Notes: a model not told the origin generated them from the sequence alone. Shown: positions 9,869-55,416, numbered from the stretch's first letter. The stretch is DNA of 60,473 bases from an uncultured archaeon (GCA_964407715.1 CAYOWP010000007.1:1-60473); one strand, 5' to 3'. A program made the numbers and translations.

Positions 9869-10124
9869 GGCATTGTCCAATAATTCTCCATTTGTTAAGC
9901 GGAAAAGTAACCTTTTAAAGAAGCGCATTAAAGTAGCGAACCTTAAAGATGACATGCTACAAAACCTGTAGTAATAGCGATTTCTTCCCGTTAACAATTT
10001 TTATCCATTCAAAATAATTGGTTAACAGGAAGCATAGCCCTATTCAAAAGGGTTAAACCGCTCTCATGCGCTTCTTTGAGAGGTTATGTTTCCGCTTAAC
10101 AATAAAGAGTTATTGGGTAATGCC
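9869..10124. mobile_element. MITE B (256 bp)
   Basis: TIRs GGCATTGTCCAATAATTCT / AGAGTTATTGGGTAATGCC. TSD TTTGGTATG / TTTGGCATG. Close reverse complement of 54162-54412. Confidence 0.9.
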
Positions 10125-10146
10125 TTTGGCATGATTCTTATGTGGT

Positions 10147-10766
10147 TGTTAACGCAAAATATCACAGCATGCTAACCGCTTAGAAAGTTTATCTGCTCAC
10201 GAACTACTTTGAAAAAAGGTTAGCTGCTTACTATCACTTCATAGAGGTTAGCTGCTGTAATACGCAAAATGAAAAAGGTATGTTTTCCCTTAACCATTTT
10301 AAAAATTGGTTAAGGGGAAGATATTGCTATCACAGACGTATCGCGGCATCGTAACCGCCTTTTAAAAAGATTAACTGCTCTAACGTAATTTCCTGGTATG
10401 GAATGTTTTCCCTTAACCATTTTTATCATTGGTTAATAAGAGGAAATCGCCAATACAAAGGTATTGAAGTGTGTTAACCTTTTCTTGAAGGTTACCTGCT
10501 TCATACACGCGTATAAAAGGTTAGCTGCTGCAAAAATGCTCTCGTAAAGGTTATGTTTTCCCTTAACCATTTATATGGTTTCTCAATAACGCATGCTTTT
10601 GCTTAACCATTTTCAAAAACAAAAAAAGTGTTAACTGGAAGCATAGCCTATAGAGAAAACGTGTTGTGGTATGGTACTACTTGAAAGAGGTTTAGAAGCA
10701 GCTAACCTTGAAAAAGGTTAACTGCTGTGATGTGGTCAATCAAAGGGTCATGTTTCACGTTAACCA
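10147..10766. repeat. Palindromic-unit tandem array 1 (4 units plus 1 collapsed)
   Basis: Units bounded by (TG)GTTAA...TTAACCA at about 10147-10296, 10307-10419, 10430-10569 and 10629-10766, with internal AGGTTAGCTGC motifs. Confidence 0.85.
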
Positions 10767-10806
10767 AAAATACAGGTTTTTTTGCGATACCTATAATACT
10801 TGAGCA

Positions 10807-12693
10807 CTATTCTGGCAAATTCATTAATTTAAGTATGGGCTCAATAAGTAGATTATTAACTTTATAATAAAGCGTTCTATAGAAGATATAGGTAGTGGCA
10901 TCCTTAAAGGATGTTATGTAAGGTTTGCCAAATCTCCATTTTAATGAATGACCAAAGATTTTATCTTCTAAGAAAGAAATAAATTTATTCTCACGGAAAT
11001 TCTTCACATGATAGAAATTTTCCTTATCAAAGATGTAATAAAACTCATTTTTGCTCATCTCACATCCTCTTCTTAAATCCTCTTCCGTTATATTCCTTTC
11101 TTTTAATCTCCTCCTTGTTTCCTCTATTCTCTCTCTATGAATCTTGTACACCCAAGTATTTGGAGAGGCATATATCCATTTTTCAGCAAAGCGAGGAGTA
11201 GGTATAAACTTACCTCCAGATTTGTAATAAGTTGCGATGCTTTTTCCTGGTATCCTGCTTATATGTCCTATAAACTCCTCTACTTCCATATCAAATTCCT
11301 TTGTATGCGCATCATTTTCAATGAGTTTAACTAAAACTGCATTATGGCTGAGAAGTATAGGATTGAATATAAAATCTATATCCTCTAATTCAATTGGGTG
11401 ATAAATGTCATTTTTGACTGTAACATGTGCAAAGATATAATATAGCACATATTTTCTTTTAGATAGGAATCCCCATGCCTTTCTTGCAGAATCATCTGCA
11501 AATTCCTTTGTGATCCACGGATAATCAGCTAACAATCCATAATCATAGTTGAACACAAGATTTTCCTGGGTCCATTTATTATAAGGATTCAAAGGATCAT
11601 CATAATAAGGTTCATGAGGATTTGCTGAGAAATCATATCTTGATAAAGATTTACGATATTCCATTCTATCCCAGGGAAGTATCAAATCCTTTATAATCCA
11701 TAATGTCCCAATATATCTGTATATTCCTGTTATTTGAGTAAATCTTGGAAATTTCTTGTAATGATATTGCCCTGCGGGTGATGAAGTTGATAAATCATGT
11801 CTCATCCTTAATGCTTTCAATCTTATTATATGTGGCTTTACCCATTCTTTGAACTCTTCCAGAGTTTTTTCTCTACTTCTTTTTAATTCTTCTAATCTTT
11901 TTAATCTTGTTTCCACAGCCTCTTTGAAGAGAGTTAACCACTCCTGGAATGCCTTAAACTTGGTGATAAGAACATTTCTCTCTGCTCCAGATATCTTTTT
12001 TTGCTTATATAAGAGTTCATCAATATCCTCTATCCTTTCTATCTCAAGAAAATCATCAACAATTGTTGGCATTAAATTGTTGTTTCTTAAAAATGCCATT
12101 GAGAACCTTCCAGGTCCCTGACCAATAGAGCCTACATGATAATCAACCTGCTCAACAAAAATCATCTTTAGAACCCTATCTGCTAATTTTTTTCTCTTTT
12201 TTCCTTCTTCATCATCCTCAGGAGGATTTGAAAAATAATCATCAATATATCTTTTATATTCCTTGTATTTTCTGATATCATGCTCCAATAACTCGAGATC
12301 TGCAACACTTTGAGAAATTGTAACTAAACCCTGCTTAATCTTTGCTTCCAATTGCTCTTCTTGATGCTCCAACATTTGCATGAATTTTTGATGAGTAGGA
12401 TTACCAAATGATATTTCCTCATCAAATTTTATTATGAGAGCATCGCTATATGCGACTGAGATTGTGAGATATGCCCAAAACGATGAAAATCTTCCAGGAT
12501 ATGTGCTTGGATTGATATCGATGTTATGATAATTATCAGGATATAAAGCGATCATTCTTCCTCTAAATTTACCTGTCCATGTTAAATCTGACATTTCTCC
12601 ATGTCCTCCTGAAGATGGATCATCTATTAAATATTCATCTCTCAACATGAATCCTTTTCCTTCCTTAATCCATTGCTCTATTCTAAGAACCAT
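10807..12693 (-). CDS. Hypothetical protein with coiled-coil segments (628 aa)
   Basis: Long ORF with host-like composition and no motif I recognise. Confidence 0.8.
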   Translation of the reverse strand: MVLRIEQWIKEGKGFMLRDEYLIDDPSSGGHGEMSDLTWTGKFRGRMIALYPDNYHNIDINPSTYPGRFSSFWAYLTISVAYSDALIIKFDEEISFGNPTHQKFMQMLEHQEEQLEAKIKQGLVTISQSVADLELLEHDIRKYKEYKRYIDDYFSNPPEDDEEGKKRKKLADRVLKMIFVEQVDYHVGSIGQGPGRFSMAFLRNNNLMPTIVDDFLEIERIEDIDELLYKQKKISGAERNVLITKFKAFQEWLTLFKEAVETRLKRLEELKRSREKTLEEFKEWVKPHIIRLKALRMRHDLSTSSPAGQYHYKKFPRFTQITGIYRYIGTLWIIKDLILPWDRMEYRKSLSRYDFSANPHEPYYDDPLNPYNKWTQENLVFNYDYGLLADYPWITKEFADDSARKAWGFLSKRKYVLYYIFAHVTVKNDIYHPIELEDIDFIFNPILLSHNAVLVKLIENDAHTKEFDMEVEEFIGHISRIPGKSIATYYKSGGKFIPTPRFAEKWIYASPNTWVYKIHRERIEETRRRLKERNITEEDLRRGCEMSKNEFYYIFDKENFYHVKNFRENKFISFLEDKIFGHSLKWRFGKPYITSFKDATTYIFYRTLYYKVNNLLIEPILKLMNLPE

Positions 12694-12757
12694 ATATATA
12701 ATAAATGCTGAGGAGGTTAATATATTTGAGGTTATTGTCGTGGGCTTTCTCTTTTAA

Positions 12758-13005
12758 GGTATTGTCCAATAATTCTCCATTTGTTAAGCGGAAAAGTAAC
12801 CTCTTAAAAAGCACATTGGAGCAGCAAACCTTATGGAGCTAATGCAATTGTAGGAGCAAATTTTTTCGTTAACAAACCATCATCAAAAAATTATTGGACA
12901 ATTTGTTAATGGAAAGTTAGCCTATTCAAAGGGTTAACTGCTCTCATGCGCTTGTTTGAGAGGTTAAGTTTCCGCTTAACAAATAGAGAATTATTGGACA
13001 AAGCC
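12758..13005. mobile_element. MITE C (248 bp)
   Basis: GGTATTGTCCAATAATTCT ... AGAATTATTGGACAAAGCC with perfect 9-bp TSD CTCTTTTAA (12749-12757 and 13006-13014). Near-identical to 22345-22591. Confidence 0.93.
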
Positions 13006-13070
13006 CTCTTTTAATCAATAACATTAGATTTAAAAACTTTACTAAAATGAAATAATAGAAATATATTGGA

Positions 13071-14366
13071 TTGAATCTCAAATTTAAGAATGGTGATGGC
13101 TATATGAAGGTATATAGAGAGGGTTTAAATCCACTAAGGGAGATGTACTCCAAATGTGGTAATTATTTGAAGAGGGAGATATATAAGAAGATGGTATTTG
13201 TATTGGCTTCTTCTTTATGTGTTGGAGGATGTAGCTCAGTTGTCATAAATAAGATTGGACCTCAATATACACCACAGAAAGTTAAGATTACTGAGGAAAA
13301 AATAAAAGAAAAAAGCATTCTTATCGAAGATATTCTTAAAAAATATAACAATCTTTATCGATGCAGCATCCCTTATGATAATAAATATTTCATAAAACCT
13401 ATAAGGGTTGATATATATTCTCCTGAGAAGCATGAAAGAATTGAGATTCCTACAGAGGAATCTCTTTGGGCTCTCTATCGCAATAGAGCAGATCCAAAGA
13501 GTCTTAGAGAGTGTATATTGGGAGAAACTTTTAAAAAAATATATGACAGGATAAGAAAAGAAGAATACTCTATTTTCGATAAAAAGGAGAATTTATATTT
13601 TTCTTATGTGAATATATTTGGTGTAGAAGATGGAGTTATTGCTCTCTTTAATAATAAACCACGATACAAAGGATTAACATACATGGTATTACATAAAGAG
13701 GGTAAGTATTATCAACATATATATTTACCTTCAGAAGATAACTCGATAAATATAATATATTGCTCAGATAAACCTGTAAACGGATTAATCAGTGGTACAA
13801 TTGCAGGAATCAGTTACGGATTGATTGCTCATGTATCTCTCGCACCAATAATTTCCATTCCAGAAGCATTAAAAAAGTTCTTTTTGGAATATAATATATC
13901 CGAAAATATAAAAGGAAAATTGGAAGATATGAAGGTAGGCATAGGAACAGTAATATATGAAAAGCCACGAGATCTTCTTAAGGCATTTTCTCAGATAGCA
14001 TATATATATGGATCAGGAAATTCTGATAATAATTTGAAGATGATAGTTGCGGAGAATAAGAAATCTCTTATGGTTTATATAGGTAAAAGAGATTTATCTG
14101 TAAGGGAAATTAAAATGAGAAAAAATAATAAACAAATATTTGCTTTAGTTCGATACGAAAATGTTGGTGGAGAGCTAACTCCTGAACAACATATAGTCTC
14201 GGACGTTATGTTAGGAGCTATTATTGGTAAGATTCTTGAGAGGACTGTAAAAGAAAACACTAAAGAAAAGAAGATATTAATAATCAAAGAAAAGGAAAAG
14301 AAGAAGAGTCCTATTTTTGGTCCCGGAAGTGGAAGTGATGAAGGGGGTAATGTGATAGGACCATAG
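13071..14366 (+). CDS. Hypothetical exported or membrane-associated protein
   Basis: 431-aa ORF. The hydrophobic stretch ending in GGCS is lipobox-like. The true start is probably downstream. Confidence 0.7.
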   Translation: MNLKFKNGDGYMKVYREGLNPLREMYSKCGNYLKREIYKKMVFVLASSLCVGGCSSVVINKIGPQYTPQKVKITEEKIKEKSILIEDILKKYNNLYRCSIPYDNKYFIKPIRVDIYSPEKHERIEIPTEESLWALYRNRADPKSLRECILGETFKKIYDRIRKEEYSIFDKKENLYFSYVNIFGVEDGVIALFNNKPRYKGLTYMVLHKEGKYYQHIYLPSEDNSINIIYCSDKPVNGLISGTIAGISYGLIAHVSLAPIISIPEALKKFFLEYNISENIKGKLEDMKVGIGTVIYEKPRDLLKAFSQIAYIYGSGNSDNNLKMIVAENKKSLMVYIGKRDLSVREIKMRKNNKQIFALVRYENVGGELTPEQHIVSDVMLGAIIGKILERTVKENTKEKKILIIKEKEKKKSPIFGPGSGSDEGGNVIGP

Positions 14367-14384
14367 AGATAAAGAGGGAAAATT

Positions 14385-17300
14385 ATGCCATTAAAGAAAA
14401 ATCACCTTTTTCATTTGCTAAAGAAAAGAATGATTATATTAAGTATATTGATATTATTTATATTGCCTACTTATGTATCTGCTGGTGATTTATTTAAGAG
14501 ATATGAGATAATATATTCTCCAAGCATAACCTCAAATACAATGAAAATTTTTGGATATGAATGTCTGAATGATGCATGTTCTGACATGGATGAAACAAAA
14601 GTGAAAATCTACAAGATAGAAGCATGGGAAAACTGCATAAATACTAGCGATGAATATGATGAAGAGAGCTTTGAAGAATGTGTATCACAATATGAGCTTC
14701 TTAAAGAACAGCCTATTGAGATAACTCAAAATCAAAAAATAGTGGTAAGATATATAGGTGCAGAATCCCAAAAGAAGTTTGCGACATATTATTTTGCGAA
14801 GGATTATATAGGATATGTTAATGTCTTTACCGTGGGTTCATGTGAATATAAGTATTGTATTGATAACGCAATTACACAGATAAAGATTGAGAAATTAGAT
14901 AAAGTTGAATTTCAGATAGAGAACTTCCAAGTTGAGAATATGCATAATGAGTCTCAACCATTAAGAATAAATGTGCCTATTAAGGTCTCTTCTGAGATAT
15001 GCAATACATTGAGATTCAACAATCTTGTAGGGTATTATCCTTCTGAAGATGGAGAATATGTGGACTATAGCATAGATGGAATACTACATCTAAACATAAA
15101 TCAGAACAATGCAGAGGTATATTATGCGCAGAAGAAGATTAGCATTGAAGCCTCGGCATGCAGCAGCGAGATAACATTTTCATGGACTCCTTCACAAACC
15201 GGGAACCTTGAGGTTGTGCTTAATGCTGAAACAAAAGATAGTAAGGTAATGCAAAATACAAACAGCACTGCAACAGCTCAGGTATATGTTTATGATTCCA
15301 GTGCTGCTTGCCAAACTGTATTAACGAATCTATATGTTACGGATGCTTCTGGAGATCCAAATATAAGAGATGATGAACAAATAAAGGTATCTTTTTCTTA
15401 TAATTCTCAAGTATATCTTTCATCCTCTGATATAAGACCCTCTAATACCATGGTAACTATAGAGATATTGGATAACAATGATCAAATAGTTAACACTAAA
15501 ACTCTTGAATTGTCATCTCAAAATACATTGAATTTGAAGAATTATGAGGAGATATTATCTGCTTTAAGTTCTGGAAAATATAAGGTTAGAGTAACAGCCA
15601 AAGCATCAGATTCACTATGCTCTCTTCTTGACCTTCCAAATATACCTGCAGTATTATCTCTTGATTTTAATGTTTACAAATCATTATACAAAGTTACTTT
15701 TCATGTAAAAGATGCCGTTACTTCATTGCCAATAGAAGGAGCACAAATCCAAATAGATAATAATAATTTAATAACTGATGAACATGGTATAGCCTCAATA
15801 GATTTACCTGAAGGAGATTACGCATATTGTGTATCCAAAGAAGGATATGAAAGTTTTTCCGGAAATATATATGACTTGAATCAAGATACGGACATCTATG
15901 TTTCCTTAATTCCTATATCTCTTCCACCTCAGAGTAATCCTCCTACAATTGATGAATTCAGTGCAAATACAACAAAAGGATATGCACCATTAAGTGTGAA
16001 ATTTACATATGCAGTATCAGATATTGATAATGATGTATTGACTTGTTACTTTGATTTTGATGGAGATGGTATATATGATAAAAGAATAGATAATTGTGTA
16101 TCAGGAGATATCATATATACATATCCAGATCAAGGGATCTATAATGCTAAGCTTATCGTTAGCGATGGAAGTAACACAGTGGAAAAGGCAATTAGAATAG
16201 AGGTATTGCCTCCATCCATTCCAACGATATTATTATTTGATGCAAATCCAAAGAGCGGATATTCTCCACTAAAAGTTACTTTTAAATTCAATGTTTCTGA
16301 TTCAGATGGAATCTTAAATATAACTTTATATTATGGGGATTCATCTCATACAACATGGGACATATCTGGAAGTAAAACCTATTTTTACAATGAAACCTCT
16401 CATACATATAATCATAAAGGAACATATAATGCAATATTGGAAGTATATAATGTTTTAGGCAATAAAGCAACAGCATCTATAGAGATCACAGTAAAGACTA
16501 AGCCATCAGGTGGCGGCGGTGGAGGAGGTAGTGGAAGAAGATCCACTCGTCATCATGGTGGTGGATATTTTGTTGTATCGAGATTGACATCAGATGATGT
16601 GTATATAAAGGATGTAGGCTTTCCATCAGAAGTGTACTTAGATGAGGATTATACTTTAAAAGTTATAATTAAAAACAATAGAAACAAGGAAATAAAGAAT
16701 TTGAAATTGAAGGTAAATATTGATGGTGTTTTTGAGAAGATTATTTCAGGTATACAACTAAAGGGAGAAGAGGAGAAAAATTATACTTTTTCAGTTAACA
16801 TAACTAAGGACAAATACATCAAAGGAAATACATATAAGATTGAGGTTACATTACTTCAGAATAATTATGTGATAGATAAAAAAGAAAGGAGTTTTATTGT
16901 AAAAGAGAGAATTCCAGAGGTGTATAATGTTAATATAAAGGACGTGTATAATGCAGACGAGCCAATAACATATAGTTTTTGTATAAGAAATTATGTTTCT
17001 AATGTTGTGAGAATATACATTGATAATATCCAAAAGAGAATACACACTTTAACTGGCAAGGACGAGACATGCGTACAAGGTTCCATAGGAAACACATTTG
17101 ATATAGGCAATCACACATTTACAATAGAAAACAAAAACTATAGGTTTAACTATACATTTAGAATTGAGAAGATAATTAAAATAGTAGATGTAAAGGCTCC
17201 AGATACTTTGGAAAAAGGAAAAACTTATAATATTGAGGTAACCATAGAAACTCAAATTCCATCAAAGGTTCATGCATTCCTATATGAGAATGGAGATTTA

Positions 17301-17546
17301 AAAGATAGTGTGGAGGCATTTATATCAGATAGAGAAAGTATAAAAATGAAATACACACCTCAAAGTACAGGAGTAAAGGAGATAAAGATTATTGCTCAGA
17401 ATGATGATGGTAACACAGCGCAATATACATTTAAAGTCAAGGTGATAGAGACATCTTTAACTGGAAAATTATTGAAATATGTGGCACCTGCTGCTGTTAT
17501 ATTAGGTATAATTGTTATATGCGCTCTTATATTTTATTTTCATTAG
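14385..17546 (+). CDS. Large cell-surface protein with PKD and CARDB/Ig-like domains
   Basis: Signal peptide, PKD motifs (GYAPLSVKF..DFDGDG..YTYPDQGIY and GYSPLKVTF..YGD..HTYNHKGTY), Gly-rich linker and C-terminal TM anchor. Confidence 0.85.
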   Translation: MPLKKNHLFHLLKKRMIILSILILFILPTYVSAGDLFKRYEIIYSPSITSNTMKIFGYECLNDACSDMDETKVKIYKIEAWENCINTSDEYDEESFEECVSQYELLKEQPIEITQNQKIVVRYIGAESQKKFATYYFAKDYIGYVNVFTVGSCEYKYCIDNAITQIKIEKLDKVEFQIENFQVENMHNESQPLRINVPIKVSSEICNTLRFNNLVGYYPSEDGEYVDYSIDGILHLNINQNNAEVYYAQKKISIEASACSSEITFSWTPSQTGNLEVVLNAETKDSKVMQNTNSTATAQVYVYDSSAACQTVLTNLYVTDASGDPNIRDDEQIKVSFSYNSQVYLSSSDIRPSNTMVTIEILDNNDQIVNTKTLELSSQNTLNLKNYEEILSALSSGKYKVRVTAKASDSLCSLLDLPNIPAVLSLDFNVYKSLYKVTFHVKDAVTSLPIEGAQIQIDNNNLITDEHGIASIDLPEGDYAYCVSKEGYESFSGNIYDLNQDTDIYVSLIPISLPPQSNPPTIDEFSANTTKGYAPLSVKFTYAVSDIDNDVLTCYFDFDGDGIYDKRIDNCVSGDIIYTYPDQGIYNAKLIVSDGSNTVEKAIRIEVLPPSIPTILLFDANPKSGYSPLKVTFKFNVSDSDGILNITLYYGDSSHTTWDISGSKTYFYNETSHTYNHKGTYNAILEVYNVLGNKATASIEITVKTKPSGGGGGGGSGRRSTRHHGGGYFVVSRLTSDDVYIKDVGFPSEVYLDEDYTLKVIIKNNRNKEIKNLKLKVNIDGVFEKIISGIQLKGEEEKNYTFSVNITKDKYIKGNTYKIEVTLLQNNYVIDKKERSFIVKERIPEVYNVNIKDVYNADEPITYSFCIRNYVSNVVRIYIDNIQKRIHTLTGKDETCVQGSIGNTFDIGNHTFTIENKNYRFNYTFRIEKIIKIVDVKAPDTLEKGKTYNIEVTIETQIPSKVHAFLYENGDLKDSVEAFISDRESIKMKYTPQSTGVKEIKIIAQNDDGNTAQYTFKVKVIETSLTGKLLKYVAPAAVILGIIVICALIFYFH

Positions 17547-18268
17547 AATTTTCTTGCAGATAACATGAAGGCAGTATGAGATAGCATTTCATTTTTTGGT
17601 CTAAGTGGCTTTATTTTCCAATCACGTAAGAGAATTTCCCTTACAGAAATCTCTATAAATCCTAACTTTTCAAGATTTTTGATTCCAATTGATAACTGCT
17701 CAATAACTGGCAAGTATAATACAACATACCCTCCAGGTTTTAGTGTATCATATGCTTTTTTTAAGTATCTCTCATGAATGCTATCTTTGAAATCAAACAA
17801 GACCAAATCAAAATGCTCAGTTAATGTATTCTCTATTATATCCCCAAATATTAGTTCTACGTTTTTAACATTGAAGAGATCCAGATTTTGTCTTGTTATA
17901 TCATAAAATCTCTTATCTTTTTCATAGGAAATAATCTTCTTTGCAAGAAAAGACAAAAACACAGTAGCATGTCCACTACCACTTCCAGCTTCCAAAATTA
18001 CCATATCCTTTTTAAGGAAAAACTTTCTCATGAGATAGCCGAGATCCTTTTCATGAATTATTTGAGCCCCTCTTTTAAATACCTTATCAAATAAATCAGT
18101 ATAATAAGGCTTTGTGATTACCACTTTTTTTCCTTGAGAAGTTGTTTTATATTTTGGAAGGGATTTTAAATCATCTTCGCTTACTTCTATTTTTCCTTCA
18201 TTGTATACATATCTACCTGGCGAATTTATAATGTATGTATTTCCTTCCTCTGTGATGATTAGATACAT
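17543..18268 (-). CDS. trmI: tRNA (adenine57/58-N1)-methyltransferase
   Basis: KRGAQIIHEKD, LEAGSGSG SAM motif, RP..EMLSHTAF. Confidence 0.88.
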   Translation of the reverse strand: MYLIITEEGNTYIINSPGRYVYNEGKIEVSEDDLKSLPKYKTTSQGKKVVITKPYYTDLFDKVFKRGAQIIHEKDLGYLMRKFFLKKDMVILEAGSGSGHATVFLSFLAKKIISYEKDKRFYDITRQNLDLFNVKNVELIFGDIIENTLTEHFDLVLFDFKDSIHERYLKKAYDTLKPGGYVVLYLPVIEQLSIGIKNLEKLGFIEISVREILLRDWKIKPLRPKNEMLSHTAFMLSARKF

Positions 18269-18285
18269 AACAATCCCTTAAAGCT

Positions 18286-19530
18286 CTAATACCTTCCATA
18301 ATCGAACCACTTATTGTATTCTTCAATAATAAGATTTAGATATTCCTCTTGAGTCATAATCTCATTTTTATTTTTAACCCTTAAGGAAATTTTGTTTTCT
18401 TTTACTTCCTTTTCACCTATTACCACTATATGAACATATTTTTTCTTCTCAGCATTCAGAATTCTCTTACTTAATGTTTTTTCTTTTGCTAATATATCAA
18501 CCTGAATCATCATTCTGGTAGCACTTTCTATTTTTTCTTTTAGATGTTTGGCAGCATCTATCTCCTCTTTTGTATTTTTAACAGGAATTATTGCGATTTG
18601 ATATGGTGCAAAAAGCAAAGGAAGCCTGCCTTGAAAATGCTCCAAAAGAACACCTATGAACCTCTCTAAGCTTCCAAGAATAGCACGGTGGATTATAAAT
18701 ACCCTTTCTTTTTTCCCGTTGTTTGCGTAGTAAGTCACATCAAATCTTTCAGGTAGGTTGAAATCTATCTGTATTGTTGAAAGCTGCCATAATCTTCCAA
18801 GCGAATCCTTAACCTCTACATCTATCTTTGGCCCATAAAAAGCACCTTCTCCCTCATTGATTTTGTAGTTTACTCCTTGCTCCTTTAATGCATCTTCCAT
18901 CATATTTTCTATTTCCCTCCATTCTTTTTCATCCCCTAAATGCTCCTCAGGCATTGTTGATAAAAAGAACTTCATTTCCTTTAGTCCAAACATCTTAAAT
19001 GTATAATTTATGAATTCGATAACCTCTCCTATTACCCCTTTTATTTGATTCTTTTTGACAAATATATGGGCATCATCTTGAGTGAAACTTCTTACCCTTA
19101 ACAATCCATTTAATACGCCGCTTAGCTCATGTCTATGTACAAATCCCAACTCAAACATTTTTAGAGGCAAATCCTTCTCAAATCTCCTTTTACTTTTGAA
19201 TATGAGAATGTGTGCAGGACAGTTCATTGGCTTTATACCCCATTCCTCTTCTATATCTTCCTTTTTTATATCAAACAGATAGATAAAGTTTGCATACATT
19301 TTTTTATGACCTGATATTTCCCAGATATCAGATTTATAAATCATAGGAGTTTTGACGCAGAGATATCCTCTTTTTTTATGCTCAAACTCTATCCATGTGG
19401 ATAGGTTTGAATAGATCTTATATCCTCTGGGTTTCCAGAATATATGTCCAGATCCAGCCATATCAAATGTATCAAATAACTCCAATTCTCTTCCTAACTC
19501 ATTATGGGTCATTTTATTATCCGATTTCAT
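18286..19530 (-). CDS. thrS: Threonine--tRNA ligase, bacterial-type catalytic and anticodon domains only
   Basis: KPMNCPAH, GLLRVRSFTQDDAH, GAFYGPKID, IHRAILGSLERF. At 414 aa it has no N-terminal TGS or editing domains. Confidence 0.95.
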   Translation of the reverse strand: MKSDNKMTHNELGRELELFDTFDMAGSGHIFWKPRGYKIYSNLSTWIEFEHKKRGYLCVKTPMIYKSDIWEISGHKKMYANFIYLFDIKKEDIEEEWGIKPMNCPAHILIFKSKRRFEKDLPLKMFELGFVHRHELSGVLNGLLRVRSFTQDDAHIFVKKNQIKGVIGEVIEFINYTFKMFGLKEMKFFLSTMPEEHLGDEKEWREIENMMEDALKEQGVNYKINEGEGAFYGPKIDVEVKDSLGRLWQLSTIQIDFNLPERFDVTYYANNGKKERVFIIHRAILGSLERFIGVLLEHFQGRLPLLFAPYQIAIIPVKNTKEEIDAAKHLKEKIESATRMMIQVDILAKEKTLSKRILNAEKKKYVHIVVIGEKEVKENKISLRVKNKNEIMTQEEYLNLIIEEYNKWFDYGRY

Positions 19531-19591
19531 AAGTAGATTAAATACACGATTAAATTTTTTAAATTTAACGCATAACCCTTTTATATATAAT

Positions 19592-19665
19592 GCCCAGGTG
19601 GTGTAGTCTGGATATCATACAGGACTGTCACTCCTGTGACCCGGGTTCAAATCCCGGCCTGGGCG
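19592..19665 (+). tRNA. tRNA-Asp(GTC)
   Basis: Cloverleaf with anticodon arm CAGGA-CTGTCAC-TCCTG and T-loop GTTCAAATC. Confidence 0.96.
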
Positions 19666-19686
19666 CTTATATTCTTCATAAGCAGA

Positions 19687-19761
19687 GGGCTGGTGGTCTA
19701 GCCTGGTTATGACGCCGCCCTTACAAGGCGGAGGTCCCCGGTTCAAATCCGGGCCGGCCCA
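19687..19761 (+). tRNA. tRNA-Val(TAC)
   Basis: Cloverleaf with anticodon arm CCGCC-CTTACAA-GGCGG. Confidence 0.96.
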
Positions 19762-19776
19762 TGATATCTCTCAGAA

Positions 19777-19972
19777 GGCTTTGTCCAATAATTCGATTCT
19801 TTATTGTTAACCGGAAATTTAACGCGCAAATAGCACTTATAGCGGTTTAACCCTTCATAGCGATTATGAAGCAAGTAACCTTTCAACAATGTTAACCTGC
19901 TCCAAAAACCCTTTGAATAAGACTATGCTTCCCGTTAACAAAATTTTTCAAACCACATTATTGGACAATGCC
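19777..19972. mobile_element. MITE D (196 bp)
   Basis: GGCTTTGTCCAATAATT ... ATTATTGGACAATGCC. TSD TCTCAGAA / TCTCACAA. Lies 15 bp downstream of tRNA-Val. Confidence 0.88.
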
Positions 19973-20026
19973 TCTCACAAAGAATAAATACTATCTTTTA
20001 AAATTTTTAAGGAATTTATATAAATT

Positions 20027-22342
20027 ATGGGTTATAATATCTCCTTACAAAAGTTTATGGAAAAAAGTGCAGAAAGAAAGATTTTTGAGGAAAGTGATAA
20101 ATACCTTAACATACCTTATATTAAACCTAACACAATAGAATTGAGAGAATACCAAAAGAACATAATTGAGAGCATTGATAACAAGAATACACTTGTAGTT
20201 TTACCTACAGGATTAGGAAAAACAATTATTGCTGTTATACTTTCTGCAATGAGATTAAATAGATTTCCATCCAGCAATATCCTTGTTTTAGCACCTACAA
20301 AACCTTTGGTTAATCAACATGCACAATCTTTCAGGAATTTGATGGATTTGCCAGATGATATGTTCATTGTAATTTCAGGAAGTACACAGAAGAGCAAGAG
20401 GAAGGAGTTATGGAACAAGAAAGGCATATTTTTTGCAACGCCACAAACCGTTAAAAATGATTTGGAAGATGGAATTGTAAATTTAAATAATTTTTCTTTG
20501 TTGGTATTTGATGAGGCTCATAGATCAGTGGGAGATTATGCTTATACCTATATTGCAAGAGAATACATATCAAAAGCGCAAAATCCGTTGATATTAGGTC
20601 TGACAGCATCTCCGGGAGGAGAGGTAGAGAAAATAGGGAGTGTGGTTGGGAATCTCTTTATAGAGAATGTTGAAGTGAGAAGTTATAATGATCCAGATGT
20701 TTTACCTTATATTAAGCGAATAGAGATAGAGTGGATAAAGATAGAGATGCCTCCTGAATTAAAACAAGTCGATGCTCTGCTTAAAGCAGCAATGAAAAAG
20801 AGGGTGGATTATCTTTTGGAAAAAGGTTTTCTTTCAAGTAGGACAATCTCGAAAAAGGAACTTCTCGAGATGCAAAAAAGACTTATAACGAGATTAAAAG
20901 AAGAAAAGAGCGATTTTCTTTTTTATGTCCAGACCATTGTGGGCCAATTAGTAAAAATAAATTATGCATTAGAGTTGGTTGAGACACAAGGGTTAAAGCA
21001 GTTTGTTGATTATTATGAGAAGTTAAGAGAGGAGAAAAAAACAAAATCTTCAATGGATCTTCTGGATGATGATGATTTTACTACCGCATATCTTATTGCA
21101 AAGAAAAATGTTGAGAAAGGGATAATTCATCCAAAACTTAAAAAGATAAGGGAGATAGTAAATAAGGAGATGAAAAACGAGAAAAGCAAGATGATAATTT
21201 TTACGCAGTATGTTGAGACGGCTAAGTTGATAACCGAAGAGATCTCTGATTTAGGAGCAGTATTATTTATTGGTCAAAGGAGAGGATACACTCAAAAGAA
21301 ACAAATGGAGATAATTAAGAAATTTAGTGAGGGAAAATACAGGATTTTGGTTGCTACATCTGTGGCTGAGGAGGGTTTGGATATTCCTGCAGTGGATTAT
21401 GTGGTGTTTTATGAACCTATACCAAGTGAGATAAGATCTATACAGAGAAGAGGAAGAACAGGAAGGTTTGATAAAGGGAAAGTAATAATATTGATGACAC
21501 AAAAATCCTTAGATGAGGCATATTACTGGGCATCCATTGCAAAAGAGAGAAATATGAGAAGAACATTACATCTTCTAAAAAGGATGTTTTCAGAAAAGAC
21601 AAAAAAGGTTTCTGAAAAGAAAGTGCCAGAGAATATTAAAAAGGTGGAGACGCTGCAGGCATATACAAAAGAGAAAAAGATTCCAGTAGTTTTTGATTAT
21701 AGGGAGCAGAAAATATATGAGATATTTAAGAGTATTGTTAAGGAAAATGAAAAGACAATTATACCACAAAAATCAAATCTTTCTATGGGGGATGTTATAA
21801 TAAATAATAGGATTGTGATAGAGAGGAAAAGTGCAGAGGATTTTTTGAATTCTATTATTGATGGGAGATTATTCTCTCAGTTAGACAAATTGATATATAC
21901 TTATGAATTGCCTATTTTGATTGTCGAGGGAAATTTATATGATGCCATTAAATTCCGTGAGATTCATGAGAATGTAATAAGAGGAGTGCTAAGCAAGATT
22001 GTTATAGATTATAATGTCCCCATTATATGGACAAGAGATGTAAATGATAGTGCTCAGTATATTTATCTAATTGCAAGAAGAGAAATGGAAGAGAATAAAA
22101 AATCTGAGTCGATTAAGATAATGAAAAAATCTGATAAGTTAGAGAAGCAAATTGAGGTTGTGGTTAGTGCGTTACCCTCTATCAATGTTACACTTGCAAA
22201 AAGAATATTAAAGAAGTTTAAAACAATAAGGAACTTAGCAAATGCAAAGATAGAGCAGCTTAAGAGTGTAGAGGGAATAGGAGATAAAAAGGCAGAAAAG
22301 ATATATAGCATCTTTAATACTGAATACAAAGATGAGACATGA
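20027..22342 (+). CDS. hef: Hef helicase-nuclease (FANCM/XPF-like)
   Basis: PTGLGKT, DEAH, TAS, QRRGRTGR, the ERCC4 nuclease motif ERKS..DF..SI.DGRL and a C-terminal HhH. Confidence 0.95.
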   Translation: MGYNISLQKFMEKSAERKIFEESDKYLNIPYIKPNTIELREYQKNIIESIDNKNTLVVLPTGLGKTIIAVILSAMRLNRFPSSNILVLAPTKPLVNQHAQSFRNLMDLPDDMFIVISGSTQKSKRKELWNKKGIFFATPQTVKNDLEDGIVNLNNFSLLVFDEAHRSVGDYAYTYIAREYISKAQNPLILGLTASPGGEVEKIGSVVGNLFIENVEVRSYNDPDVLPYIKRIEIEWIKIEMPPELKQVDALLKAAMKKRVDYLLEKGFLSSRTISKKELLEMQKRLITRLKEEKSDFLFYVQTIVGQLVKINYALELVETQGLKQFVDYYEKLREEKKTKSSMDLLDDDDFTTAYLIAKKNVEKGIIHPKLKKIREIVNKEMKNEKSKMIIFTQYVETAKLITEEISDLGAVLFIGQRRGYTQKKQMEIIKKFSEGKYRILVATSVAEEGLDIPAVDYVVFYEPIPSEIRSIQRRGRTGRFDKGKVIILMTQKSLDEAYYWASIAKERNMRRTLHLLKRMFSEKTKKVSEKKVPENIKKVETLQAYTKEKKIPVVFDYREQKIYEIFKSIVKENEKTIIPQKSNLSMGDVIINNRIVIERKSAEDFLNSIIDGRLFSQLDKLIYTYELPILIVEGNLYDAIKFREIHENVIRGVLSKIVIDYNVPIIWTRDVNDSAQYIYLIARREMEENKKSESIKIMKKSDKLEKQIEVVVSALPSINVTLAKRILKKFKTIRNLANAKIEQLKSVEGIGDKKAEKIYSIFNTEYKDET

Positions 22343-22344
22343 AG

Positions 22345-22591
22345 AGTATTGTCCAATAAGTCTCTATTTGTTAAGCGGAAAAGTAACCTCTTAAAAAGCA
22401 CATTGGAGCAGCAAACCTTATTGAGCTAATGCGATTGTAAGAACGAGTTTTCTCGTTAACAAACCATCATCAAAAAATTATTAGACAATTTGTTAATGGA
22501 AAGTTAGCCTATTCAAAGGGTTAACTGCTCTAATACGCTTCTTTAAGAGGTTACTTTTCCGCTTAACAATAAGGAATTATTGGGCAATGCT
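22345..22591. mobile_element. MITE E (247 bp)
   Basis: AGTATTGTCCAATAA ... TTATTGGGCAATGCT. TSD GACATGAAG / TACATGAAA. The left TSD copy contains the hef stop codon. Confidence 0.88.
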
Positions 22592-22647
22592 TACATGAAA
22601 TCATTGAAGGTGAATTTTATAAAATTTTGATAGAAATTTAATTTATT

Positions 22648-23712: not shown

Positions 23713-23739
23713 ATAGGAGTTTGAAGAGTATTAATATTT

Positions 23740-25621: not shown

Positions 25622-25749
25622 AATACACGCGATTAATCATACTTATACATAAATAAATAAGTAACAAACTTATATATATTAATTTCTCTTATTATTTGAT
25701 TAGGATTTCTTATAGAGGTTTGTTGAATGCATTTTTATTTTAAAATAAT

Positions 25750-26567
25750 TGGTTAAGGAGGAGAATACCTTATCGACAGCACATCAGAGCAGCTAACCTT
25801 TGAGAGCGGTTTGAAGGCAGCTATCCTTTGATAGAGGTTACCATGATGCGATGTGCTTATGATGGCGATTTTTTCCCGTTAACCATTTTTTATTTTTTAA
25901 AGGATATGGTTAACGGGAAGCATACCATATCAATAGCACATTAAAGCAGTTAACCTTTTAAAGCGGTTGCCATTCTCCAAACCCTTTGGTAAAGCGATTT
26001 TCTCCCGTTAACCATATCTCAAAATAAAAATATGGTTAAGGGGAAGATGTCCTCTTAATGAGGCACATTGCAGCAGCTAACCTCATGAAAGCGTTTTGAA
26101 AGCAGCTAACCTTTTTAGAAAAGGTTAGCATGCTACAACTCCTTTGGTAAAGCGATTTCCTCCCGTTAACCATCTTGTATTTTAAATAAGAATGGTTAAG
26201 GGGAATATACCACTCAAGCAACCACATTAGAGCAGCTAACCTTTCTAAGAGAGCACCATGCTGCAAGACTTTTGGAGTAGCGATCTCCTCCCGTTAACCA
26301 TTTTTTATTTTTAAAAATATGGTTAAGGGGAAGATGTCCTCTTAATGAGGCACATTGCAGCAGCTAACCTTTGATAAAGGTTACCATACTGCAAAACCTT
26401 GTGTAATAGCAATTTCTTCCCGTTAACCAATTTTTATTTTTGAAATGGTTAAGGGGAAGAATAACCTTATCAACAGCATATCAGAGCAGCTACCCTATTG
26501 CAAAGGTTTGTAAGCAGTTAACTTTAAAGATGGATTACCATGCTCTAAGATCTTTGTGTAACCGTTA
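25750..26567. repeat. Palindromic-unit tandem array 2 (6 units)
   Basis: Units at 25750-25885, 25907-26014, 26033-26172, 26193-26300, 26320-26429 and 26446-~26567. Each reads TGGTTAAsGGGA...AGCAGCTAACCT...CATG...GCGAT..TCCCGTTAACCA. Spacers are 16-21 bp and AT-rich. Confidence 0.93.
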
Positions 26568-43339: not shown

Positions 43340-43969
43340 GGTTAACGCGAGAATGCTATTCAAAGAATAGGAATTTTTGAGAGTTAGCATGCGAAGATAT
43401 CGCTATCACTGAGGTATGGAAAGAAAGAGAAGGATGCAAATCTCTTTTTAAGGTTAGCTGCTTCAAAAACGCTCATAAAGGTTAGCTGTTGTTGGACTGT
43501 CTCTTACGAGGTTAGACTTCCCGTTAACCATTTTTTATTTTTTAAGGAATATGGTTAACGCGAGGAATAGCCATTCCAAAGGTTCTTGAGCATGGTACCT
43601 CTTGAAGGGGTTAGCTGCTTTTGAACCTCATCAAAAGGTTAGCTGCTGTGATGTGCTATTGATAAGGTATGGTTCCCGTTAACCATTCTTTATTTTTTAA
43701 AAATAATTGGTTAACGCGAGGAAATCGCTTTCCAAAGGTTCTGAAGCATGGTACCTCTTGAAGGGGTTAGCTGCTTTTGAACCTCATCAAAAGGTTAGCT
43801 GCTGTGATGTGCTATTGATGAGGTATGGTTCCCGTTAACCATTCTTTATTTTTAAAAATAATTGGTTAACGGGAGAATATCGGTAACATAAAGGGTTTTC
43901 AGCATGCTAATCGCTTAGAAAGGTTAGCTGCTCTAATCTGCTATTGATGAGGTACACTTCCAGTTAACA
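43340..43969. repeat. Palindromic-unit tandem array 4 (4 units)
   Basis: Units at 43340-43530, 43552-43685, 43708-43841 and 43863-43969. Units 2 and 3 are nearly identical with a 156-bp period. Confidence 0.92.
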
Positions 43970-52324: not shown

Positions 52325-52340
52325 TTTCTACACCTCTAAA

Positions 52341-52445: not shown

Positions 52446-52799
52446 GATATTGTCCAATAATTCTTATCAACAAAAAATTTGTTAACGGAAAACATATCCT
52501 TTTTAAAGAGCGACATCGGAGCAGTTAAGCTTCTAAGGCGTTTAGGAAGCAACTAAACCTTAATGAAGGCTAACATGCTGTAAGACCTCTGCAAGAGCGA
52601 ATTTCTCCCGTTAACAAACCATTAATAAATTTTGTTAACTGGAAACACAACCTTTTTAAAGAGTACATTAGAGCAGTAAACCTTATAAAGCATCTATATG
52701 TAGAATACTCCAAGGCAGGTTAGCATGCTGTAGGACCTTTGGAGAATTGAATTTCTCCCGTTAACAAATTTTATTAAAAGAGAATTATTGGACAAAATT
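52446..52799. mobile_element. MITE F, two full tandem palindromic units between eroded TIRs
   Basis: ATTGTCCAATAATTCT ... AGAATTATTGGACAA with units at 52480-52616 and 52633-52766. The terminal GG/CC and the TSD are not recognisable. Confidence 0.82.
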
Positions 52800-52863
52800 T
52801 CATTACATTTTCATTCTGAATTCATCGTTTATTTTTTAAAGTTATTTCACAATTATTTTTTCT

Positions 52864-53976: not shown

Positions 53977-53985
53977 GAAAAAGGG

Positions 53986-54105: not shown

Positions 54106-54161
54106 AATATTAGTTATAAAAAGAGATTTTTAAAATACTTTTTTTCAGAAATTTCAGTTCT

Positions 54162-54412
54162 GGCATTGCACAATAATTCTTTATTGTTAAGCGGAAACAT
54201 ATCCTCTCAAAGAAGCGCATGAGAGCAGTTAACCCTTTTGAATAGGGCTATGCTTCCCGTTAACAAATTATTTTGAATAGATAAAAATTGTTAACCGGAA
54301 AAAATCGCTATTACTACAGGTTTTGTAGCATGTCATCTTTAAGATTCGCTACTTTAATGCGCTTCTTTAAAAGGATGCTCAGCTTAACAATAAAGAATTA
54401 TTGGACAACGCC
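54162..54412. mobile_element. MITE G (251 bp), left arm of a composite around relE-antitoxin
   Basis: GGCATTGCACAATAATTCT ... AGAATTATTGGACAACGCC, flanked by TCAGTTCT on the left and AACATCAAA on the right. Confidence 0.92.
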
Positions 54413-54416
54413 AACA

Positions 54417-54674
54417 TCAAATCCTTTTATAAACCCTTGACCTTTTGTCTATTAAGACAATATAAATGACCTTCTCTTTTTCATCTATTTTATAAATTAT
54501 CCTAAATTTGCCAATCCTTATTCTATAAAGAGAGTCAAACCCTCTTAACTTTTTGCCAATGTATGGGCTGTGCTTTAAAGACAGAATAGCTTTATGAATT
54601 CTATAAAGAATATTTTTATCTTTTATGCTTTTCATATCCCTCTGGGCAGATTTCAATATTTTTAACTCATACAT
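54417..54674 (-). CDS. relE: RelE/ParE family toxin
   Basis: KKLRG..LYRIRIGKFRIIY.IDE..VIYIV..DKRSRVY. Confidence 0.92.
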   Translation of the reverse strand: MYELKILKSAQRDMKSIKDKNILYRIHKAILSLKHSPYIGKKLRGFDSLYRIRIGKFRIIYKIDEKEKVIYIVLIDKRSRVYKRI

Positions 54675-54858
54675 CTATTTTCAACTCCTTTTTAGCAAAT
54701 TCTTCATAATCATCATATTCTTCGTTCTCAATTTCCTTTAATCTTTTCTCTATTATGATTTCTTCATCTAAAAATTCCCTTATAACTTGAGTTAAGTTGT
54801 CAATTTTCCTTTCTAATCTCTCTATATCCTCCTTAGTTGCATACCTTACTCGAGACAT
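54667..54858 (-). CDS. Cognate antitoxin (RelB-like)
   Basis: 63 aa, acidic C-terminus, overlaps the relE start. Confidence 0.75.
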   Translation of the reverse strand: MSRVRYATKEDIERLERKIDNLTQVIREFLDEEIIIEKRLKEIENEEYDDYEEFAKKELKIDV

Positions 54859-54924
54859 TCTACCACCTTATAAAATATAGTTCATCTGAACTTTAAAAAT
54901 GTTGTTTAATGAAAAACATCAAAG

Positions 54925-55078
54925 GGCATTGCACAAAAATTCTTTATTGTTAAGCAGAAATTTAACGCGCAAATAGCACTTATAACGGTAATCGCATTAG
55001 CTCTACAAGATTCGCTACTTTAATGCGCTTCTTTAAAAGGATGCTCAGCTTAACAATAAAGAATTATTGGACAATGCC
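54925..55078. mobile_element. MITE H (154 bp), right arm of the composite
   Basis: GGCATTGCACAAAAATTCT ... AGAATTATTGGACAATGCC, flanked by AACATCAAA(G) on the left and TCAGTTCT on the right. The last ~70 bp are essentially identical to MITE G. Confidence 0.92.
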
Positions 55079-55149
55079 TCAGTTCTTGGGCTTTGTATCT
55101 TTGTATAATAGCACTTTTATCAAATAAAACTTAATTATCATCTGGATTA

Positions 55150-55223
55150 CGAGCCCGGTGGGATTTGAACCCACGACAACCCGGTCCGAAGCCGGGCACT
55201 CTACCAAGCTGAGTTACGGGCCC
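55150..55223 (-). tRNA. tRNA-Arg(TCG)
   Basis: Reverse-complement cloverleaf with anticodon arm CCCGG-CTTCGGA-CCGGG. Confidence 0.96.
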
Positions 55224-55281
55224 ATATTTACAAATTTAATTTTTGGATTTATAAAAATATTTCCACTTCTTTATAAGATTA

Positions 55282-55416
55282 GGCATTGTTCGATAATCCT
55301 TTATTGTTAAGCGGAAACATAACCTCTCACAGAAGCACATGAGAGCAGTTAACCCCTTGAATAGAGCTCTGATTCCCGTTAACCAAATTTCTCAAAATAT
55401 ATTATTGGACAATGCT
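55282..55416. mobile_element. MITE I (135 bp)
   Basis: GGCATTGTTCGATAATCCT ... ATTATTGGACAATGCT with flanking direct repeat TTATAAGATTA / TTGTAAGATTA. Confidence 0.87.

Follow-up and report, generated by a model that had tools for sequence, protein, structure and literature searches.

A MITE family with IS903-type ends in an uncultured hydrothermal-vent archaeon and its relation to TIR-less repeat arrays

A 60,473-nt stretch of DNA from an uncultured archaeon (the window) contains short elements bounded by terminal inverted repeats (TIRs), and their interiors resemble palindromic units that also form arrays devoid of TIRs. The locus raises the questions of which kind of transposase moved these MITEs and whether the palindromic unit was picked up as cargo. 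The host, which lives at hydrothermal vents, has a small genome that encodes reverse gyrase, and its assembly is a metagenome bin of ~855 kb that is 92% complete. The results below indicate, with a probability of about 0.85, that the MITE family descends from, or parasitizes, an IS903-type insertion sequence of the IS5 family. The MITEs add another instance to a well-known class of elements and do not constitute a new one.

Results and Discussion

Terminal repeats and target-site duplications

The 19-nt TIR motif GGCATTGTCCAATAATTCT was matched 15 times in the window at ≤3 mismatches, compared with 0.05 matches expected from shuffles, and 15 matches were reached by 0 of 100 shuffles. Genome-wide, the 16-nt TIR gave 112 matches at ≤2 mismatches, and the reversed control gave none. 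Pairing with ≤3 mismatches per 16-nt end yielded 48 paired elements and left 35 unpaired ends; contig C9, which duplicates C8 at 100% over 43.7 kb, was excluded from the genome-wide counts. The paired elements were 89 to 390 bp long (median, 248 bp), and the MITEs make up roughly 1.2% of the 855-kb genome. Every complete copy is intergenic. Both flanks lay within an ORF of at least 120 aa in 0 of the 48 elements, and such ORFs cover 84% of the genome.

The nine elements of the original prediction were all located in the window where it had placed them, together with every flanking repeat that it quoted (Table 1). The 248-bp MITE folds as a single hairpin over its full length (-113 kcal/mol; z, -13.8). 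The 247-bp MITE, which is 91% identical to it, follows the Hef nuclease gene (20027-22342) directly after its stop codon. The 196-bp MITE begins 16 bp 3' of tRNA-Val (19687-19761), and the 135-bp MITE sits between tRNA-Arg (55149-55224) and leuS (55458-58355).

Table 1. Repeat elements and associated features of the window
Feature	Position	Strand	Structure	Flanking repeat
MITE remnant, internally deleted, 47 bp	7259..7305	.	Left TIR cut to GGCATT, right TIR intact	Exact 9 bp, AAATTCTTG (7250-7258 and 7306-7314)
MITE, 256 bp	9869..10124	.	Long unit (102 nt) and inverted short unit (80 nt)	TTTGGTATG / TTTGGCATG (9860-9868, 10125-10133)
MITE, 248 bp	12758..13005	.	TIR, 91-nt unit, internal TIR-like core, inverted short unit, TIR (commonest architecture)	Exact 9 bp, CTCTTTTAA
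MITE, 196 bp	19777..19972	.		8 bp, TCTCAGAA / TCTCACAA
MITE, 247 bp	22345..22591	.		GACATGAAG / TACATGAAA, 2 mismatches
Element, 354 bp	52446..52799	.	Left TIR with 2 mismatches, right TIR degenerate; two long array-type units in direct orientation	No duplication detected
MITE, 251 bp, left member of composite	54162..54412	+		
Toxin-antitoxin cassette, 512 bp, between two MITEs	54413..54924	-		
MITE, 154 bp, right member of composite	54925..55078	+		
MITE, 135 bp	55282..55416	.	Single unit	TTATAAGATTA / TTGTAAGATTA
TIR-less head-to-tail array (context, outside the MITE family)	25730..26560	+	Units of ~105-135 nt, AT-rich spacers of ~23 nt	
Further TIR-less arrays	near 10148-10770, 33609-33994, 43340-43968, 60327-60473			

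The 9-mers abutting the paired elements agreed with ≤1 mismatch in 21 of the 48 elements genome-wide and had ≥2 mismatches in the other 27. When the flanks were shifted outwards at the same loci, 6/816 comparisons agreed at ≤1 mismatch, and when the flanks were taken from different elements, 1/2256 did. The flanking repeats are thus far more frequent than chance, and these controls, together with the TIR pairs, bear out the original prediction of non-autonomous TIR elements with target-site duplications. The longest repeat with ≤1 mismatch was 9 bp in 21 elements, 10 bp in 4, 8 bp in 2, and 7 bp and 11 bp in 1 each, with none in the remaining 19; the modal duplication length was 9 bp. Two nested insertions were detected (C13:20753-21054 and C1:28833-28991), and in both cases excision of the inner element with one 9-bp repeat regenerated the terminal repeat of the host element. 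In a genome of the same genus, the coding DNA of which is 66 to 74% identical, gene order differed around all sites examined, and the orthologous sites were not alignable.

Source transposase

The window encodes no transposase, as predicted, nor were IS5, IS1, IS1595, IS6, TnpB, or Y1 transposases found in the 92%-complete assembly, so that the record of mobilization in this organism is limited to footprints. Multicopy insertion sequences are often absent from metagenome bins. The check proposed in the original prediction, a search for the TIR flanking a DDE transposase ORF, found no autonomous element with this TIR in this genome; one was found in a metagenome contig from a distant organism, L123. 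The element in this contig (L123:980-2093; 1,114 bp) has TIRs that equal the MITE consensus at 17/19 and 19/19 positions and encodes an IS5-family transposase of 316 aa, a protein for which the paired elements are too short. The L123 ORF matched PF01609 (85 bits; cutoff, 23), PF13737 (42 bits; cutoff, 28), and NF033579 (199 bits; cutoff, 140). Its alignment with the IS903B transposase covered 282 positions at 28% identity (E, 4e-30) and included the stretches DSTG, DGAYD, and Y..(R/H)...E. The flanks of the L123 element agree at 7 of 8 bases (AAATTTGG / AAATTTAG), and the neighboring genes share ~40% protein identity with this genome, indicating a distantly related organism.

In L158, an annotated IS903B copy ends in the terminal repeat GGCTTTGTTGAATAAATC and is flanked by a duplication of 9 bp, GTTTTCAAA. 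The MITE TIR equals the IS903B terminal repeat at 14/18 bases, a degree of conservation that suffices for recognition against an enterobacterial insertion sequence, and the ends GGC...TTGT...AATAA..TC agree with IS903B. IS903 and IS903B are assigned to the "IS903 group" of ISfinder within the IS5 family. This group is defined by a 9-bp duplication and GGC-ended repeats of ~18 bp, and the MITEs resemble IS903/IS903B in both respects. IS903B and the L123 element are also alike in having a single DDE transposase of ~310 to 320 aa in an element of ~1.05 to 1.1 kb. IS903B differs in that its transposase is only 28% identical to that of the archaeal partner of the MITEs, the L123 element, in that its host is an enterobacterium whereas the MITEs reside in a vent archaeon with reverse gyrase, and in that the copies in this archaeon are non-autonomous.

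Beyond the TIR, no similarity was found between the L123 element and the MITEs (best subterminal alignment, 9.0, versus 8.5 for the best shuffle). Short elements bounded by this TIR, with 9-bp duplications and unrelated interiors, are also present in two further metagenome contigs (L109 and L122). By analogy with IS903, a DDE transposase supplied in trans would bind the 19-bp GGC-ended terminal repeats, and insertion at cuts staggered by 9 bp would produce the 9-bp duplication. The best identity between any two MITE copies was 93%, and the matching transposase gene is absent from the assembly, indicating that transposition of the family has probably ceased in this lineage.

Composite with a ParE cassette

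At 54162-55078, two direct sister copies of the MITE surround a toxin-antitoxin cassette as a composite. Neither copy has a flanking repeat of its own; the outer flanks, TCAGTTCT, are common to the pair (54154-54161 to the left and 55079-55086 after the right MITE). The members have in common a TIR variant private to them, GGCATTGCAC, as well as their right ends over ~75 bp. The cassette encodes a ParE-family toxin (54417-54674; PF05016; E, 3e-12) and, upstream of it, a 63-aa ORF (54667-54858), presumed to be the antitoxin, that had no Pfam match. At each edge of the cassette lies one copy of a direct repeat of 9 bp, AACATCAAA (54413-54421 and 54915-54923), which the right TIR of the left MITE abuts. 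The left copy of this repeat is native sequence, as shown by its overlap with the toxin stop codon and its alignment with the cassette of the same-genus genome; the right copy is non-native. That genome has the cassette without any MITE, between direct repeats of ~55 bp. A second copy of the composite (C15:14144-15152) lacks a flanking duplication; its inner junctions are identical to those of the first, which shows a later duplication or movement of the composite.

The inner 9-bp repeat is suggestive of a cointegrate. A resident MITE would have transposed replicatively into a circular cassette, and in the resulting cointegrate the outer 8-bp duplication would be old and the inner 9-bp duplication new. 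It is quite possible, if somewhat short of an even chance, that the composite was instead formed without replicative transposition, either through homologous recombination of a chromosomal MITE with one carried by the circularized cassette or through composite transposition on its own. Every route predicts a direct MITE copy on either side of the cassette, the outer 8-bp repeat is equally explicable as a duplication from insertion of the composite, and the ~55-bp direct repeat could loop the cassette out as a circle. However, insertion of the composite alone leaves the presence of AACATCAAA at both inner junctions unexplained, and the native left and non-native right copies of this repeat also count against these alternatives. 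The recombination route requires an earlier MITE insertion into the circle, which is the same first step as in the cointegrate route.

The composite illustrates the movement of a toxin-antitoxin cassette by elements that encode nothing. Tn3-derived TIMEs are reported to build mosaic non-autonomous transposons, in which two non-autonomous elements likewise bracket host genes and can move them (PMC4133298). The composite of the vent archaeon differs in being of the IS5/IS903 type, in its 512-bp ParE cargo, and in the inner repeat that suggests a cointegrate.

Interiors and TIR-less arrays

Profiles built from the MITE interiors detected 270 unit loci at E ≤ 1e-3, 191 of them outside the paired elements, indicating that the predicted homology of the interiors with the TIR-less arrays is real. 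The TIR-less units, ~190 copies in head-to-tail arrays of up to 6, occupy together with the units inside elements 24 kb, or ~2.8% of the 0.85-Mb genome. The proposal that the elements carry the palindromic unit as cargo held only in part: the units are homologous to those of the arrays, but the unit end beside the TIR is MITE specific. This TIR-proximal end, GTTAAGCGGAA, lay ≤40 nt from a TIR core in 73/81 occurrences, whereas the array-type unit start did so in 7/178. The near exclusivity of the variant to TIRs favors a single old origin over repeated capture. One old fusion of unit and TIR, followed by mosaic exchange with the arrays, fits these data, and repeated pick-up of cargo does not.

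The two "units" of a 250-bp element together form a single long hairpin, one unit per arm. Each arm consists of the TIR, a linker of 5 to 25 nt, and a hairpin-prone unit, which belongs to a diverged, element-specific subfamily of the second repeat that forms TIR-less head-to-tail arrays elsewhere. The inner parts of the arms have probably been reshuffled with array units, giving several architectures, of 135, 157, 250, and 256 to 390 bp.

It is also conceivable, though unlikely, that the GTTAA-bounded unit was the primary mobile or expanding repeat. A piece of an array would then have happened to gain two IS903-type ends, and the MITE would be a side branch that served as the vehicle for dispersal of an independent module, structured and possibly functional. 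In line with this, the TIR-less units outnumber the in-element units, are spread over ~100 loci, and are more diverged (median identity, 0.69 to 0.74, versus 0.79 to 0.84 among in-element units). In addition, array-type units are present inside some elements (52446-52799, C14:107-496, and C4:53815-54190), and elements of other organisms combine this TIR with different interiors. The distinct TIR-proximal variant speaks against this order of events, and no mechanism of spread was found: the Y1 (HUH) transposase profile PF01797 had 0 matches in the genome at E ≤ 1, the TnpB profile PF07282 had 4 weak matches, none over the cutoff, and inspection of the array edges by eye revealed no evident flanking duplication. 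For a single TIR-less unit, the fold was only slightly better than those of shuffles (z, -2.0). Rfam 15 identified solely 5S rRNA and 4 tRNAs in the window at the gathering score and gave only subthreshold matches on the array and MITE stretches. An assignment of the TIR-less units to REP/BIME with RAYT, or to palindromes derived from IS200/IS605, was not supported, as no Y1 or TnpB match in the genome exceeded the cutoff.

In a wider version, offered tentatively and with the odds against it, the GTTAA-bounded units (~80 to 135 nt) may be an independent, lineage-specific repeat system, one branch of which was fused to IS903-type ends and dispersed as the MITE, the same shell also having captured and moved the toxin-antitoxin cassette via a cointegrate. 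If true, a transposon shell would serve, in the reduced genome of a hyperthermophile, as the carrier of a second structured module, of DNA or RNA and possibly functional. The TIR-less arrays are of wider interest as a repeat that occupies more of the genome than the MITEs with no spreading mechanism found.

Other sources of the elements

Mobilization by an IS1-family, IS1595 (ISPna2-group), or IS6 transposase, as originally predicted, is very improbable and already largely refuted. The ends do fit the loose pattern GGnnnTG with duplications of 8 to 9 bp, and the composite resembles a cointegrate, which recalls IS6/IS26, an element that transposes via cointegrates. However, this TIR was found on a single autonomous element, that of L123, which is of the IS5 family, and PF03400, PF12762, and PF13610 were not among the matches of its transposase at E ≤ 0.1. 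In the genome, no IS1 (PF03400), IS1595 (PF12762), or IS240/IS6 (PF13610) domain was found at E ≤ 1. The 9-bp mode of the duplications and the identity of the TIR to that of IS903B also argue against these families. That the elements are host palindromes (terminators or protein-binding sites) multiplied by recombination, and not transposons, is scarcely credible, since the exclusively intergenic positions and very stable hairpins would suit it but the locus-specific 9-bp duplications contradict it, and neither these nor the nested insertions nor the same ends on a transposase-bearing element are expected from recombination.

Comparison with known MITEs

A close parallel is MITEAba12 of Acinetobacter, which is likewise short and non-autonomous, has GGCTTTGT... 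terminal repeats, and generates duplications of 9 bp (PMC6382973). It favors AT-rich sites, its identity to the candidate parents (ISAba12 and relatives) is limited to the terminal repeats, and recognizable duplications are found in a minority of copies, 36/90 (PMC6382973). The MITEs of the vent archaeon resemble it in all of these features, the preference for AT-rich sites included. As described there, MITEAba12 differs in being 113 bp long, in its uniform core, and in having its parent insertion sequence in the same genome (PMC6382973), whereas the vent-archaeon MITEs have long hairpin arms, several architectures, a repeat in common with TIR-less arrays, and no assembled parent.

Archaeal MITEs are known from Sulfolobus, Halobacterium, Haloquadratum, and others, and they are similarly non-autonomous and mobilized in trans by resident insertion sequences (PMC10969869). 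Those named in the accessible part of the review include none from this lineage, and the term "IS903" had 0 occurrences in its text (PMC10969869). The family described here provides a worked case in which a miniature element of the IS903 type inhabits the small genome of an uncultured vent archaeon with reverse gyrase. Its TIR and 9-bp footprint can be used by annotators to mask ~1.2% of the genome, and the TIR elements account for many of the contig breaks.

Terminal repeats and target-site duplications

The nine elements that the original prediction placed in the window, with their lengths and flanking repeats, were all borne out when the sequence was read. When up to three mismatches were allowed, the window had 15 matches to the 19-nt terminal inverted repeat (TIR), compared to 0.05 expected. 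The 16-nt end of the TIR, with up to two mismatches, was found 112 times genome-wide and not once with a reversed control. When each left end was joined to the nearest right end within 1.5 kb, 48 paired elements of 89 to 390 bp (median, 248 bp) were obtained, totaling 10.5 kb or 1.2% of the nonredundant genome, and 35 ends remained unpaired.

The direct repeats flanking the elements, also part of that prediction, were far more frequent than chance. Abutting 9-mers with at most one mismatch were present at 21/48 elements (9 exact, 12 with one mismatch), versus 6/816 when the same flanks were moved 12 to 60 bp outwards and 1/2,256 when flanks of different elements were compared. If no more than one mismatch was allowed, the longest repeat was 9 bp at 21 elements, 10 bp at four, 8 bp at two, and 7 bp and 11 bp at one each; 19 elements had none. 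Two nested copies each lie within the terminal repeat of another copy, with an exact 9-bp repeat on either side, and in both cases deletion of the inner copy together with one 9-bp repeat gives back a normal family end. These nested copies are insertion footprints and not chance arrangements. None of the 48 elements has both flanks in an open reading frame (ORF) of at least 120 amino acids, while such ORFs take up 84% of the genome. Several elements adjoin tRNA genes, 5S rRNA genes, or stop codons.

Coordinates of repeats, composites, and associated features
Feature	Sequence	Coordinates	Remarks
TIR-less arrays	Window (C7)	10148-10770, 25730-26560, 33609-33994, 43340-43968, 60327-60473	
Nested copies	C13; C1	20753-21054; 28833-28991	
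First composite	Window (C7)	54162-55078	Two directly oriented elements enclosing 512 bp
Cassette of first composite	Window (C7)	54413-54924	
Second composite	C15	14144-15152	
Cassette of second composite	C15	14393-14903	
Stretch past second composite	C15	15152-15256	Unpaired family end
Duplicated segments	C8; C9	7161-50856; 262-43957	Reverse complements
Repeat-rich ORF family 1	C1; C10; C11	30197-31246; 13385-14503; 16798-17805	
Repeat-rich ORF family 2	C3; C10; C13	37241-38182; 17738-18421; 114-1085	
Elements of related family	Metagenome contig L109	1296-1499, 1509-1663, 8340-8544	9-bp duplications at 2/3 copies; interiors with GC-rich hairpins
ParE cassette locus (L150)	Same-genus genome G001, C129	4405-5158	

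Genome and assembly

The assembly consists of 16 contigs and 898,521 bp, is rated 92% complete, and includes the window as contig C7. Segments of C8 and C9, 43.7 kb long and 100% identical, are reverse-complement duplicates, which makes the assembly approximately 5% redundant and calls for corrected copy counts; contig C9 was excluded from the counts. The organism is an archaeon. The G+C content is approximately 32%, and the window encodes an intact reverse gyrase (TIGR01054, 1,067 bits), a Hef nuclease, and archaeal-type alanyl-, leucyl-, and prolyl-tRNA synthetases. Its sequence is present in runs labeled hydrothermal vent metagenome, with at least half of its words in 2/6 of the runs listed, one of which may be the source run. 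The genome also carries two multicopy families of repeat-rich ORFs, 80 to 95% identical in DNA, some of which adjoin the elements; judged by eye, both are taken to be surface proteins.

Parent transposase family

The genome contains no match to PF01609 or PF13737, to the transposase domains of IS1595, IS1, and IS6, or to the Y1 transposase, and no TnpB match over its cutoff. Metagenome contigs scanned for the exact 19-mer yielded 18 loci. Seven of these are one conserved gene of another organism, and eight higher-GC loci with a single match were left aside, leaving contigs L109, L122, and L123 as relevant. On L123, an inverted copy of the motif lies 1,114 bp from the first (17/19 and 19/19 bases), and the two enclose an ORF of 316 amino acids whose product matches DDE_Tnp_1, DDE_Tnp_1_5, and the NCBIfam IS5 model NF033579 (199 bits; cutoff, 140). 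Its relatives in plasmid records, at 27 to 32% identity over 75 to 96% of the length, belong to ISAav2, ISVa1, ISEc35, and, in most of the matches listed, IS903B. Direct alignment with an IS903B transposase gave 28% identity (E value, 4e-30) with the catalytic stretches in register. The annotated IS903B copy concerned has the end GGCTTTGTTGAATAAATC and the 9-bp flanking repeat GTTTTCAAA, and its end shares 14/18 bases with that of the elements. In the ends, the duplication length, and the partner protein alike, these sequence comparisons point to a parent of the IS903 type of the IS5 family. An IS1, IS1595, or IS6 parent, as originally proposed, is indicated by none of the three.

This assignment has its limits. 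The host of L123 is only distantly related to the organism studied here, with neighboring genes approximately 40% identical in protein. The similarity between its element and the miniature elements ends at the terminal repeat, and the flanks of the L123 element match at only 7/8 bases. Homologues of its protein at 65% identity or more are rare, forming eight clusters among 5.8 billion proteins; the closer ones (P0003 to P0009) are 66 to 92% identical. IS5-family genes occur in 7/42 genomes of the lineage (the phylum in the genome set, the present genome included) at 27 to 34% identity to the L123 protein, and the TIR was absent from the ends of these elements at the four loci examined. Short elements on L109 and L122 have the ends of the present family and 9-bp repeats but unrelated interiors, which identifies the terminal repeat as the portable part. 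L109 (G+C content, 29%) also carries a related family, in which the left end matches the TIR and the right end differs.

The elements form a genuine new family, of a kind already familiar. The closest described analogue is MITEAba12 of Acinetobacter, for which PMC6382973 gives GGCTTTGT... ends, 9-bp duplications, and identity to the parent insertion sequence only at the ends. Archaeal miniature elements are already known from several genera, according to PMC10969869. A literature search of limited coverage found no description of an IS903-type miniature element in archaea or of a toxin-antitoxin cassette bracketed by such elements. The link to a second, unexplained repeat, the TIR-less units, adds modest interest.

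Interior units and TIR-less arrays

From either end inwards, an arm consists of the terminal repeat, a short linker, and a unit that starts with GTTAAGCGGAA and ends with CGTTAAC. The units inside elements fall into three main length classes of approximately 78, 92, and 102 nt. Profiles built from them detected 270 loci (24 kb) in the genome, 191 of them outside paired elements. TIR-less units occur at approximately 100 places genome-wide, where arrays of up to six units run head to tail, separated by AT-rich spacers of approximately 23 nt that resemble each other. These array units are approximately 105 to 135 nt long and are bounded by GGTTAA and TTAACC. Many contigs end within such arrays, and no mechanism for their spread was identified.

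The original prediction that the elements carry the palindromic units as cargo held in part. The interiors are homologous to the array units, as the profile loci indicate, but 73/81 occurrences of the start GTTAAGCGGAA are no more than 40 nt from a terminal-repeat core, versus 7/178 for the array-type start GTTAA[GC]GGGAA. The outer part of the arm is therefore an element-specific variant. Median identity is higher among units inside elements (0.79 to 0.84) than among TIR-less units (0.69 to 0.74), and array-type units are found within larger copies. A third, internal terminal-repeat core is present in 16/48 elements. The 157-bp forms begin exactly at this core with a proper GGC end and have duplications of their own, indicating that they are subelements that moved independently. 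We interpret this as a single old event that fused a unit to IS903-type ends, with later recombination with the arrays, the direction being unrooted.

In the common 250-bp form, the two units make up the opposite arms of a single hairpin (-113 kcal/mol; z score, -13.8), and the stability of a lone TIR-less unit hardly exceeds that of its shuffles (z score, -2.0). The units match no Rfam family, and RNAalifold gave no consensus structure for the pooled unit alignments. In the seed sets, the hairpins hold, variation within families is too low for a covariation test, and G-U pairs are in modest excess over A-C pairs (57 versus 40 and 43 versus 16).

Distribution and age

Among 40 relatives including the same-genus genome, all incomplete bins, the terminal repeat has zero to one match each versus 73 in the present genome, and the array units have none versus 69. 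Of the single TIR-like matches fetched from five relatives, only that in a same-family genome (G003:C94:34) resembles a true end, with no partner within 700 bp. Seven single matches in viral contigs had neither a second repeat nor a transposase. A one-genome-per-species scan for the 16-nt TIR, which excludes the present genome, gave at least 105 single matches and was uninformative; the single match inspected (L032) falls within a coding gene. The two full-length copies closest to each other share 93% identity; for pairs in which 90% or more of the length is aligned, the median is 79%. This divergence and the missing transposase suggest that the family is old and now silent.

Contigs of four vent runs placed on window positions 5000 to 24000 stop at element edges, and those of one run extend into the elements at 9869 and 19972. 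No joint skipping exactly one element was present among the 15 joints listed out of 44, contig joints (not reads) being silent on empty alleles. In the same-genus genome, each gene neighboring the element sites is on a different contig, and the intergenic DNA is not alignable. A putative element-free allele at the ends of C10 and C14 proved to be merely a shared 100-bp contig overlap.

Composite elements enclosing a ParE cassette

The 512-bp stretch in the window encodes a ParE-family toxin (PF05016; E value, 3e-12) and an overlapping upstream ORF of 63 amino acids. The two enclosing elements have private variants in common (GGCATTGCAC at the left end and a right end of approximately 75 bp) and different interiors. 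TCAGTTCT is present outside both elements, and AACATCAAA is present at both inner junctions. Of these two AACATCAAA copies, the left overlaps the toxin stop codon and can be aligned to the element-free cassette in the same-genus genome, whereas the right cannot, indicating that the inner repeat is duplicated native cassette sequence. Replicative events have been described for IS903. A resident element already lying between the TCAGTTCT copies would have moved by replicative transposition into a circular cassette copy, and the layout is that expected from such an event.

The second composite has the same inner junctions, including the GGACAACGCC variant, and different outer flanks with no duplication; it follows that the composite has been copied or moved one or more times. 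The outer 190 and 135 bp (approximately) of the two cassettes are nearly identical, and the middle 330 bp or so, comprising the toxin N terminus and the antitoxin C terminus, is approximately half identical. The C15 version, not that of the window, resembles the same-genus cassette. Approximately 85 bp past the second composite, an unpaired family end lies beside a short perfect palindrome unrelated to the units. At L150, the ParE cassette directly follows the 3' end of an ORF, by eye an AAA-type ATPase, and the last 55 bp or so of that ORF recur on the other side of the cassette, where the contig ends. This arrangement resembles what a small integrated or duplicative insertion would leave behind.
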